DNA of 64,000 bases from Escherichia coli (GTDB lineage Bacteria; Pseudomonadota; Gammaproteobacteria; Enterobacterales; Enterobacteriaceae): assembly GCF_003334815.1 (NCBI RefSeq), contig NZ_QOWO01000007.1; one strand, given 5' to 3'. The notes below the pieces were generated by a model. It made no database searches. It saw nothing but the letters and a program-made list of their open reading frames with translations, and was not told the DNA's origin. Below, piece after piece: positions 3,593 through 54,544 of this stretch. Made by a program: the position numbers and the translations under genes. How positions within the stretch are numbered: position 1 is the first letter of the stretch; every line of letters begins with the position of its first letter.

Positions 3593-4150
3593 ATGAGTGA
3601 TGAGGGACTGGCGCCAGGAAAACGCTTGTCGGAAATCCGCCAGCAGCAGGGGCTTTCACAACGTCGTGCCGCCGAACTCTCCGGGCTGACTCACAGTGCT
3701 ATCAGTACGATAGAACAAGATAAAGTCAGCCCTGCCATCAGTACGCTGCAAAAGCTGCTGAAGGTGTATGGTCTGTCACTCTCGGAATTCTTTTCCGAGC
3801 CGGAAAAACCTGATGAGCCGCAGGTCGTCATTAATCAGGACGACTTAATTGAGATGGGTAGTCAGGGTGTGTCAATGAAGCTGGTTCATAACGGTAACCC
3901 GAATCGCACGCTGGCGATGATCTTTGAAACGTACCAGCCGGGCACAACCACTGGGGAAAGAATTAAGCATCAGGGTGAGGAAATAGGCACTGTACTGGAA
4001 GGTGAAATTGTTCTGACGATTAATGGTCAGGATTACCACCTCGTCGCGGGGCAAAGTTATGCCATTAATACCGGCATCCCGCACAGTTTCAGTAATACGT
4101 CGGCAGGTATTTGCCGAATTATCAGCGCCCATACGCCCACCACGTTTTAA
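3593..4150 (+). CDS. puuR: Putrescine-utilisation repressor PuuR (XRE-type HTH plus cupin domain), 185 aa
   Basis: ORF 3593..4150; N-terminal HTH (LSQRRAAELSGLTHSAISTIEQ), C-terminal cupin-like; AAGGA Shine-Dalgarno at 3579-3583. Confidence 0.93.
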   Translation: MSDEGLAPGKRLSEIRQQQGLSQRRAAELSGLTHSAISTIEQDKVSPAISTLQKLLKVYGLSLSEFFSEPEKPDEPQVVINQDDLIEMGSQGVSMKLVHNGNPNRTLAMIFETYQPGTTTGERIKHQGEEIGTVLEGEIVLTINGQDYHLVAGQSYAINTGIPHSFSNTSAGICRIISAHTPTTF

Positions 4151-4225
4151 TCTTTTTGTTCTGTAAGCCGGGTAAGCGCAATGCGCCCGGCAATCTATAC
4201 ACAAAATCATTCAAGTTGCATCAAG

Positions 4226-4310
4226 GCGGCAAGTGAGCGAATCCCGATGAGCTTACTCAGGTAAGTGATTCGGGGGAGCGAACGCAGCCAAGGCAGAGGC
4301 GGCTTGAAGG
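4226..4310. repeat. ERIC/IRU-like imperfect palindromic intergenic repeat
   Basis: GAGCGAATCCCGATGAGCTTACTCAGGTAAGTGATTCGGGGGAGCGAACGCAGCC: imperfect inverted arms, resembles the enterobacterial ERIC consensus core; lies in the puuR-puuC spacer. Confidence 0.4.
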
Positions 4311-4424
4311 ATGAAGTGTATATAAAGAATGTCGCCAGAAATAAACGGGCATACGGCCCGGGGATCTCTGCGCCCTGACGTTCACAAACTGCATATATCT
4401 GATAGACGTGAAACAGGAGTCATA

Positions 4425-5912
4425 ATGAATTTTCATCATCTGGCTTACTGGCAGGATAAAGCGTTAAGTCTCGCCATTGAAAACCGCTTATTTATTAACG
4501 GTGAATATACTGCTGCGGCGGAAAATGAAACCTTTGAAACCGTTGATCCGGTCACCCAGGCACCGCTGGCGAAAATTGCCCGCGGCAAGAGCGTCGATAT
4601 CGACCGTGCGATGAGCGCAGCACGCGGCGTATTTGAACGCGGCGACTGGTCACTCTCTTCTCCGGCTAAACGTAAAGCGGTACTGAATAAACTCGCCGAT
4701 TTAATGGAAGCCCACGCCGAAGAGCTGGCACTGCTGGAAACTCTCGACACCGGCAAACCGATTCGTCACAGTCTGCGTGATGATATTCCCGGCGCGGCGC
4801 GCGCCATTCGCTGGTACGCCGAAGCGATCGACAAAGTGTATGGCGAAGTGGCGACCACCAGTAGCCATGAGCTGGCGATGATCGTGCGTGAACCGGTCGG
4901 CGTGATTGCCGCCATCGTGCCGTGGAACTTCCCGCTGTTGCTGACTTGCTGGAAACTCGGCCCGGCGCTGGCGGCGGGAAACAGCGTGATTCTAAAACCG
5001 TCTGAAAAATCACCGCTCAGTGCGATTCGTCTCGCGGGGCTGGCGAAAGAAGCAGGCTTGCCGGATGGTGTGTTGAACGTGGTGACGGGTTTTGGTCATG
5101 AAGCCGGGCAGGCGCTGTCGCGTCATAACGATATCGACGCCATTGCCTTTACCGGTTCAACCCGTACCGGGAAACAGCTGCTGAAAGATGCGGGCGACAG
5201 CAACATGAAACGCGTCTGGCTGGAAGCGGGCGGCAAAAGCGCCAACATCGTTTTCGCTGACTGCCCGGATTTGCAACAGGCGGCAAGCGCCACCGCAGCA
5301 GGCATTTTCTACAACCAGGGACAGGTTTGCATCGCCGGAACGCGCCTGTTGCTGGAAGAGAGCATCGCCGATGAATTCTTAGCCCTGTTAAAACAGCAGG
5401 CGCAAAACTGGCAGCCGGGCCATCCACTTGATCCCGCAACCACCATGGGCACCTTAATCGACTGCGCCCACGCCGACTCGGTCCATAGCTTTATTCGGGA
5501 AGGCGAAAGCAAAGGGCAACTGTTGTTGGATGGCCGTAACGCCGGGCTGGCTGCCGCCATCGGCCCGACCATCTTTGTGGATGTGGACCCGAATGCGTCC
5601 TTAAGTCGCGAAGAGATTTTCGGTCCGGTGCTGGTGGTCACGCGTTTCACATCAGAAGAACAGGCGCTACAGCTTGCCAACGACAGCCAGTACGGCCTTG
5701 GCGCGGCGGTATGGACGCGCGACCTCTCCCGCGCGCACCGCATGAGCCGACGCCTGAAAGCCGGTTCCGTCTTCGTCAATAACTACAACGACGGCGATAT
5801 GACCGTGCCGTTTGGCGGCTATAAGCAGAGCGGCAACGGTCGCGACAAATCCCTGCATGCCCTTGAAAAATTCACTGAACTGAAAACCATCTGGATAAGC
5901 CTGGAGGCCTGA
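4425..5912 (+). CDS. puuC: Gamma-glutamyl-gamma-aminobutyraldehyde dehydrogenase (NAD(P)-dependent aldehyde dehydrogenase), 495 aa
   Basis: ORF 4329..5912 trimmed to ATG 4425 (MNFHHLAYWQDK...) with AGGAG at 4415-4419; ALDH motifs EAGGKSA and NQGQVCIAGTR. Confidence 0.93.
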   Translation: MNFHHLAYWQDKALSLAIENRLFINGEYTAAAENETFETVDPVTQAPLAKIARGKSVDIDRAMSAARGVFERGDWSLSSPAKRKAVLNKLADLMEAHAEELALLETLDTGKPIRHSLRDDIPGAARAIRWYAEAIDKVYGEVATTSSHELAMIVREPVGVIAAIVPWNFPLLLTCWKLGPALAAGNSVILKPSEKSPLSAIRLAGLAKEAGLPDGVLNVVTGFGHEAGQALSRHNDIDAIAFTGSTRTGKQLLKDAGDSNMKRVWLEAGGKSANIVFADCPDLQQAASATAAGIFYNQGQVCIAGTRLLLEESIADEFLALLKQQAQNWQPGHPLDPATTMGTLIDCAHADSVHSFIREGESKGQLLLDGRNAGLAAAIGPTIFVDVDPNASLSREEIFGPVLVVTRFTSEEQALQLANDSQYGLGAAVWTRDLSRAHRMSRRLKAGSVFVNNYNDGDMTVPFGGYKQSGNGRDKSLHALEKFTELKTIWISLEA

Positions 5913-8514: not shown

Positions 8515-8597
8515 GTCTGATGCGCTGCGCTTATCAGGCCTGCAAACGACGTATTGATTATGTATGCCGAATAAAGCATTCACGCCGCATCCGGCAA
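8515..8597. repeat. REP (repetitive extragenic palindrome) pair
   Basis: TGATGCGCTGCGCTTATCAGGCCTGC and inverted TGCCGAATAAAGCATTCACGCCGCATCCGGCA between the convergent puuE and pspF. Confidence 0.7.
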
Positions 8598-8616
8598 GTT
8601 GTATTGCTCAACTTCG

Positions 8617-46133: not shown

Positions 46134-46142
46134 AACTGCATA

Positions 46143-46235
46143 AAAAAATAGAGTCTGTCGACATCCGCCAGACTCTACAGTACACACAGCAGTGCATCCG
46201 CGTCTTAAATCCGGCATTGTCTCCTCTGCGCCGGT
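46143..46235 (-). ncRNA. mcaS: Small RNA McaS (IsrA)
   Basis: Minus strand reads ACCGGCGCAGAGGAGACAAUGCCGGAUUUAAGACGCGGAUGCACUGCUGUGUGUACUGUAGAGUCUGGCGGAUGUCGACAGACUCUAUUUUUUU: multiple GGA motifs and an intrinsic terminator; abgR-smrA spacer. Confidence 0.8.
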
Positions 46236-49612: not shown

Positions 49613-49734
49613 GCAGGTGAATGCAACGTCAAGCGATGGGCGTTGCGCTCCATATTGTCTTACTTCCTTTTTTGAATTACTGCATAGCACAATTGATTCG
49701 TACGACGCCGACTTTGATGAGTCGGCTTTTTTTT
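49613..49734 (+). ncRNA. fnrS: FNR-activated small RNA FnrS (about 122 nt)
   Basis: GCAGGUGAAUGCAACGUCAAGCGAUGGGCG... ending in the GCCGACU-uugaug-AGUCGGC hairpin plus a U8 run. Confidence 0.85.
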
Positions 49735-54317: not shown

Positions 54318-54544
54318 TGAATAAATCCTTTAGTTATTTTATTTGCCTTTTATCCCCATTTCGGGGAGTGAAAACATCCTAAAGGAGAAGTTCAGTTAGC
54401 CGATAAATATCATTTGTTACGCCTTAAGTAAAACCTTAATCAAATAATTCCTCTGAAATGATAATAAGTCTGGTGAATGTATCGAAGATAATACATACAA
54501 AATAAAAATTATACTTTTAATTTGCTATACGTTATTCTGCGCGG

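Follow-up and report, generated by a model that had tools for sequence, protein, structure and literature searches.

The puuR and puuC genes of Escherichia coli lie in the same direction on the + strand of the 64,000-nucleotide stretch of DNA analysed here (the window), at 3593-4150 and 4425-5912, respectively, and are separated by a spacer of 274 bp. Within this spacer, at 4196-4322, resides a full-length, 127-bp copy of the ERIC repeat (enterobacterial repetitive intergenic consensus; also named IRU or RU-1), to which we assign no strand. The element starts 45 nt past the puuR stop codon, and a further 102 nt separate its end from the puuC start codon, such that neither the stop codon nor the ribosome-binding site is covered by it. 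Its ends are formed by the terminal inverted repeats TATACAC (4196-4202) and GTGTATA (4316-4322), in which the first and the last TA, respectively, represent the two copies of a duplicated target, and an inverted-repeat finder delineated complementary arms at 4196-4222 and 4296-4322. The conserved apical stem-loop of ERIC, GAGCTTAC-TCAG-GTAAGTGA, occupies 4249-4268, where the central inverted repeat is matched exactly and its columns are conserved in 8/8 aligned copies. The ERIC core motif GAGCTTACnnnnGTAAGTGA was found once in the window, against 0.00 occurrences expected by chance. A preliminary description of this DNA had recognized this core and placed it in an imperfect palindrome of some 85 bp (4226-4310); both the palindrome and its ERIC-type core are indeed present, with a strongly non-random fold (z -6.6; see below), but the coordinates covered the inner part only, as the arms and the empty-site alleles described below set the insertion bounds at exactly 4196-4322, that is, 127 bp with both flanking TA. 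By coordinate offset, the element corresponds to NC_000913.3 1362514-1362640 in MG1655, the record of which annotates only CDS in the puu region, such that the missing repeat feature there is uninformative.

The assignment to ERIC is supported by a gapless alignment to the consensus, by the empty-site bounds and by a sub-threshold Rfam match that we discuss below. Aligned to the published 127-nt E. coli consensus (that of Wilson & Sharp, reprinted in Delihas 2007, PMC2759123 Table 1a), the puu copy spanned 127/127 columns with 106 identities (83.5%), compared with 54/127 for the opposite orientation, thereby substantiating over its entire length the ERIC/IRU resemblance proposed earlier. In this alignment the consensus printed by Delihas 2007 had to be reverse-complemented to match the + strand of the window. 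A Salmonella copy, SeRU-1, was identical at 100/127 positions. The 7-bp terminal inverted repeats and the 5'-TA-3' at both termini are features tabulated for ERIC/IRU/RU-1 elements (PMC2229807 Table 1). Each of the 5,426 complete E. coli genomes queried with the consensus contained between 2 and 22 places (median 13; 63,005 in total), such that similarity to a dispersed repeat family, on which the preliminary description depended, is evident throughout the species; the window copy used as query returned 47,678 places, likewise in all 5,426 genomes, with a median of 10 per genome. The family was reportedly described in 1990-91, by Sharples & Lloyd in 1990 and Hulton et al. in 1991, and the copies of E. 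coli K-12 are said to have been catalogued by Wilson & Sharp in 2006.

To place the puu element among other members of the family, copies were fetched from the yeiL-psuT spacer, the ybhJ-ybhI spacer and a site beside a type VI secretion (T6SS) vgrG/DUF4123 cluster, and all copies from these three sites were 127 bp long with TATAC...GTATA ends. Among the copies compared, the closest to the puu ERIC was the T6SS-adjacent one, with 85% identity and the same distinctive terminal sequences, while the yeiL/ybhJ type was 95% identical to the Salmonella SeRU-1 copy. This pattern of sequence similarity suggests that the puu and T6SS-adjacent copies may belong to an ERIC subfamily of their own, separate from the yeiL/ybhJ type. 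The T6SS-adjacent copy (NZ_OW967795.1) lies just downstream of the vgrG/DUF4123 gene pair, in an accessory region. The copy in the ybhJ-ybhI spacer starts 1 nt past the stop codon of ybhI, and its transcribed orientation is the reverse of that of the puu copy; in strain JJ2434 it is represented by an allele in which the apical stem GGAGCTTAC is changed to GTCACTTAC.

We then examined the puuR-puuC site across complete E. coli genomes, the presence/absence comparison proposed with the preliminary description. The region was present in about 4,372/5,426 genomes, and many of the matches were exactly 125 bp shorter than the window sequence. Three alleles were counted at the site. The filled allele, taken as the element plus short flanks, was found in 2,794 genomes at 95% identity or more (in 2,791 at no less than 99%), an empty allele reading GGCAATC-CA-TAAAG (CA-empty) in 979 genomes, and a second empty allele reading GGCAATC-TA-TAAAG (TA-empty) in 527 genomes, 490 of them exact. 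Together these sum to 4,300 genomes, in agreement with the 4,303 that carry the neighbouring single-copy hairpin described below. The element is thus polymorphic within the species: it occupies the site in about 65% of the genomes that have the locus, and 1,506 E. coli genomes lack it there. Strain-to-strain presence and absence of E. coli ERICs is attributed to Wilson & Sharp 2006 in PMC10969869. Several further observations were made in the course of these searches. About 1,050 of the 5,426 genomes yielded no puuR-puuC region at megablast sensitivity, and six places with the puu locus fell on records typed as plasmids. In strain 2017.17.03CC, an IS1 has entered downstream of the ERIC and ahead of the puuC start codon, at about 800-1590 of the segment NZ_AP027829.1 186495-188672, with the IS1 transposase CDS ending 39 nt before puuC, and the native puuC upstream region is therefore probably disrupted or replaced.

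The TA-empty allele was predicted from the TA-duplication rule ahead of the search and was subsequently found. Comparison of the filled allele of the window with the TA-empty allele of APEC O2-211 revealed a clean 125-bp indel, corresponding to the element plus one duplicated TA, with no other difference over 175 bp. To polarize the alleles, species representatives were queried genome-wide with the conserved hairpin that neighbours the ERIC; four loci were returned, in E. albertii NBRC 107761, Escherichia sp. E1V33, the divergent E. coli E69 and a 'Citrobacter' MAG, and 4/4 carried the CA-empty site. Judging from this comparison of alleles, the most parsimonious history begins with an ancestral puuR-puuC spacer reading GGCAATC-CA-TAAAG, which acquired a TA dinucleotide when C mutated to T in an E. 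coli lineage, and continues with the entry of an ERIC at the new TA and the duplication of that TA. Because the CA-empty site is found in E. albertii and in a cryptic Escherichia clade, the insertion is placed inside E. coli. Given the gapless consensus match, the terminal inverted repeats, the TA duplication, the dispersal and the presence/absence polymorphism, we identify the puuR-puuC palindrome as an ordinary, full-length member of ERIC, a known and well-characterized family of small mobile repeats in enteric bacteria.

As RNA, the region 4196-4322 folded into a single long hairpin of -51.7 kcal/mol, compared with a mean of -29.3 +/- 3.4 kcal/mol for dinucleotide shuffles, none of which folded as well (0/200; z -6.6). 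The antisense RNA reached -36.3 kcal/mol, such that the orientation of the element present in the puu sense transcript is the one that folds better. Moreover, in 7/7 ERIC sequences tested the orientation matching the window + strand gave the more stable fold, by 10-17 kcal/mol, an asymmetry that stems from G.U pairs and whose presence in all seven copies, as predicted folds, hints at a constraint acting at the RNA level. When the hairpin was projected onto 8 copies and consensus sequences, 92.7% of the cells held standard pairs, compared with 31-46% when the partners were slid, and helix 1, which is formed by the terminal repeats, was paired in 100% of the cells. Changes on both sides occurred in 6/43 hairpin pairs, and the covariation score was reached by 0/500 shuffles, in a sample that comprises 8 related sequences only, one of which supplied the structure. 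The compensatory changes include C51G/G76C, which is unique to the puu copy, and U58G/A69C in the T6SS-adjacent copy. Complementary arms are also expected from transposon inverted repeats at the DNA level.

The remainder of the spacer contains further structured segments. A G+C-rich hairpin outside the ERIC (GCCGGGTAAGCGCAATGCGCCCGGC; 4167-4191, + strand) begins 17 nt after the puuR stop codon and folds to -15.6 kcal/mol (z -2.4). It is single-copy, with a single match in each of 4,303 genomes, and is common to filled and empty alleles as well as to E. albertii. No T-run follows it in the spacer sequence, and it therefore does not resemble an intrinsic terminator; it may stabilise puuDR RNA at the 3' side or direct its processing. 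By eye this hairpin appeared REP-like, yet it was rejected as a REP unit because it is single-copy, and a search of the puuR-puuC spacer for REP-type motifs gave no match. Between the ERIC and puuC, a terminator-like hairpin on the minus strand (4346-4360; CGGGCCGTATGCCCG then TTTATTTCTG) has no minus-strand gene nearby, and such patterns occurred at chance level (1 found, 0.7 expected); E. albertii keeps its stem through changes that are G.U-compatible on the + strand. Scanning the spacer for sigma-70-like promoters and intrinsic terminators identified none inside the ERIC, the only matches being at chance level and outside the element. Elsewhere in the window, the puuE-pspF spacer holds two REP units in opposite orientation at 8515-8600, a BIME-like pair that is probably the REP112a-b of EcoCyc, and three known sRNA genes exceeded the Rfam gathering thresholds: McaS/IsrA (46140-46235, - strand), FnrS (49613-49730, + strand) and MicC (54542-54662, + strand).

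The consequences of the insertion depend on how the puu genes are transcribed. The preliminary description regarded the surrounding genes as a single transcription unit, which agrees with a PuuR-repressed puuDRCBE operon (PMC9397018) but holds only in part, as Maciag et al. 2011 (PMC3141248) also mapped a sigma-S-dependent start from which a separate puuCBE unit is transcribed. This start already allows puuCBE transcription to vary independently of puuR, and if it were located upstream of 4196, the ERIC would sit in the puuCBE 5' leader. In a read-through puuDR transcript, the ERIC would be expected to form a stable 127-nt hairpin within the spacer. ERICs of Yersinia that are cotranscribed with flanking genes lower the upstream mRNA in an orientation-dependent manner by exposing an RNase E site, according to De Gregorio 2005 as reviewed in PMC2229807, PMC3184786 and PMC10969869. 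These Yersinia elements constitute the only experimental precedent for ERIC function. The destabilising copies of De Gregorio et al. (2005; J Bacteriol 187:7945) are reported to overlap or adjoin stop codons in one orientation and to require disturbance by ribosomes, while ERICs far from ORFs are reportedly in the other orientation and may stabilise upstream RNA. By analogy, the ybhI copy fits this stop-codon rule, which would put the puu copy in the class of distant elements in the other orientation. A literature search for puuR or puuC in connection with ERIC returned nothing relevant, and the RNase III and RNase E transcriptome papers searched made no mention of puu or ERIC.

These data allow several readings of the element to be weighed. 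As the preliminary description proposed, and in reasonable analogy with Yersinia, the hairpin could act as a post-transcriptional control module in puuDRCBE read-through RNA, either by blocking 3' exonucleases and thus stabilising the upstream puuDR segment or by providing an entry site for RNase E or RNase III, such that filled and empty strains would differ in their PuuR:PuuCBE ratio. The high stability of the sense-strand hairpin relative to its antisense counterpart, the orientation asymmetry shared by seven copies, with its hint of RNA-level constraint, the compensatory changes that keep the stem and the reported RNase E-mediated effect of Yersinia ERICs on cotranscribed upstream mRNA all speak for such a role, but complementary arms are expected anyway of transposon inverted repeats, uncoupling needs no ERIC where puuCBE has its own sigma-S start, and 1,506 E. 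coli genomes together with all outgroups do without the element. Furthermore, the element is set off from the puuR stop codon by 45 nt that include another hairpin, and the Yersinia effect reportedly needs proximity to the stop codon. On balance we regard a control module, the main rival to near-neutrality, as unlikely. The more specific proposal that the insertion is a natural regulatory polymorphism, in which the hairpin alters the processing or decay of puuDR read-through RNA and thereby shifts the ratio of PuuR repressor to PuuCBE, appears to us distinctly unlikely; if it were true, filled and empty lineages, the former including K-12, would differ in their induction of putrescine catabolism.

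Two further readings were weighed. A small RNA gene homologous to the Vibrio antisense RNA AS5 (Rfam RF02818) is indicated by a cmscan match at 4195-4318 on the + strand that covers the full model length with E = 4e-8 to 8e-9, yet its score of 44.8 bits is far below the gathering threshold of 96 and marks a related sequence rather than a member, the apical part of the model is unaligned, and no promoter-like or terminator-like signals flank the element; we consider this reading very improbable. Rfam holds no ERIC family, this sub-threshold match to V_AS5 being the sole Rfam match of the element, and it is best explained by a Vibrio RNA that overlaps an ERIC-related repeat. ERIC has been reported in Vibrionaceae (PMC10969869). 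Finally, the position of the element between two genes of one pathway, with a G+C-rich hairpin just upstream, could point to a locus-specific regulatory palindrome (a terminator, attenuator or operator) or to another repeat family such as REP/BIME or boxC. The chance of this is negligible in our estimate: the element agrees with the ERIC consensus along its whole length, belongs to a dispersed repeat with a median of 10-13 places in each genome, is missing from the 1,506 E. coli genomes and the outgroups with flanks that are otherwise identical, and has no T-run behind it. A REP/BIME identity was ruled out by the length of 127 bp and the ERIC match; the genuine REP pair of the puu operon lies after puuE, and the hairpin upstream of the ERIC is single-copy.

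Taken together, the element is very probably an ERIC insertion that is tolerated and near-neutral, and not a dedicated operon regulator. Near-neutrality is the most likely status, inferred from the expectation that the hairpin would occlude neither a stop codon nor a ribosome-binding site and from the lack of promoter-like or terminator-like signals in the element; as a 3' structure on puuDR-containing RNA, its effect would be modest at most. Against neutrality, the filled allele is frequent and conserved at 99% or more in 2,791 genomes, a pattern that either selection or recent common descent could produce, and Yersinia ERICs do alter the levels of cotranscribed mRNA. Beyond correct annotation the significance of the insertion is small, and the three-allele series with its outgroup polarity, while neat, is not conceptually new. 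Nevertheless, with the CA, TA and filled stages all present in living strains, the puu locus offers a textbook example of the insertion of a miniature mobile element. The natural filled and empty alleles are also suited to tests of the effect of an ERIC hairpin on E. coli operon mRNA, such as has been reported for Yersinia, and where K-12 serves as the reference for puu regulation, its puuR-puuC spacer should be understood as 125 bp longer than the ancestral one.

Several known systems provide points of comparison. REP/BIME elements are, like the puu copy, intergenic palindromic repeats of E. coli and are able to stabilise upstream mRNA, and REP112a-b has been associated with stabilised puu transcripts under fluoride stress, according to PMC10100675; REPs differ in being about 35-40 bp long, G+C-rich and present in hundreds of copies. 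The Vibrio RNA V_AS5 is significantly similar to the element along the outer stems, both in sequence and in structure (E about 1e-8), but it belongs to another genus, has been described as an antisense RNA and not as a repeat, and cannot be aligned in the apical region. The Yersinia ERICs belong to the same family as the puu copy, lie between codirectional genes and form an RNA hairpin. The puu copy, however, stands 45 nt from the puuR stop codon, whereas the destabilising Yersinia class is reportedly found at stop codons, and in the puu sense RNA the A/U-rich arm is the 5' one, the reverse of the arrangement in the ybhI-adjacent copy. With the ERIC/IRU/RU-1 family itself there is no categorical difference, the puu copy being only somewhat diverged, with 21 substitutions relative to the consensus. 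It shares with the family the length of 127 bp, the colinear sequence, the TATAC-type 7-bp ends, the TA duplication, the intergenic position and the long imperfect hairpin, as well as an abundance of about 10-20 copies per E. coli genome and presence or absence from strain to strain.
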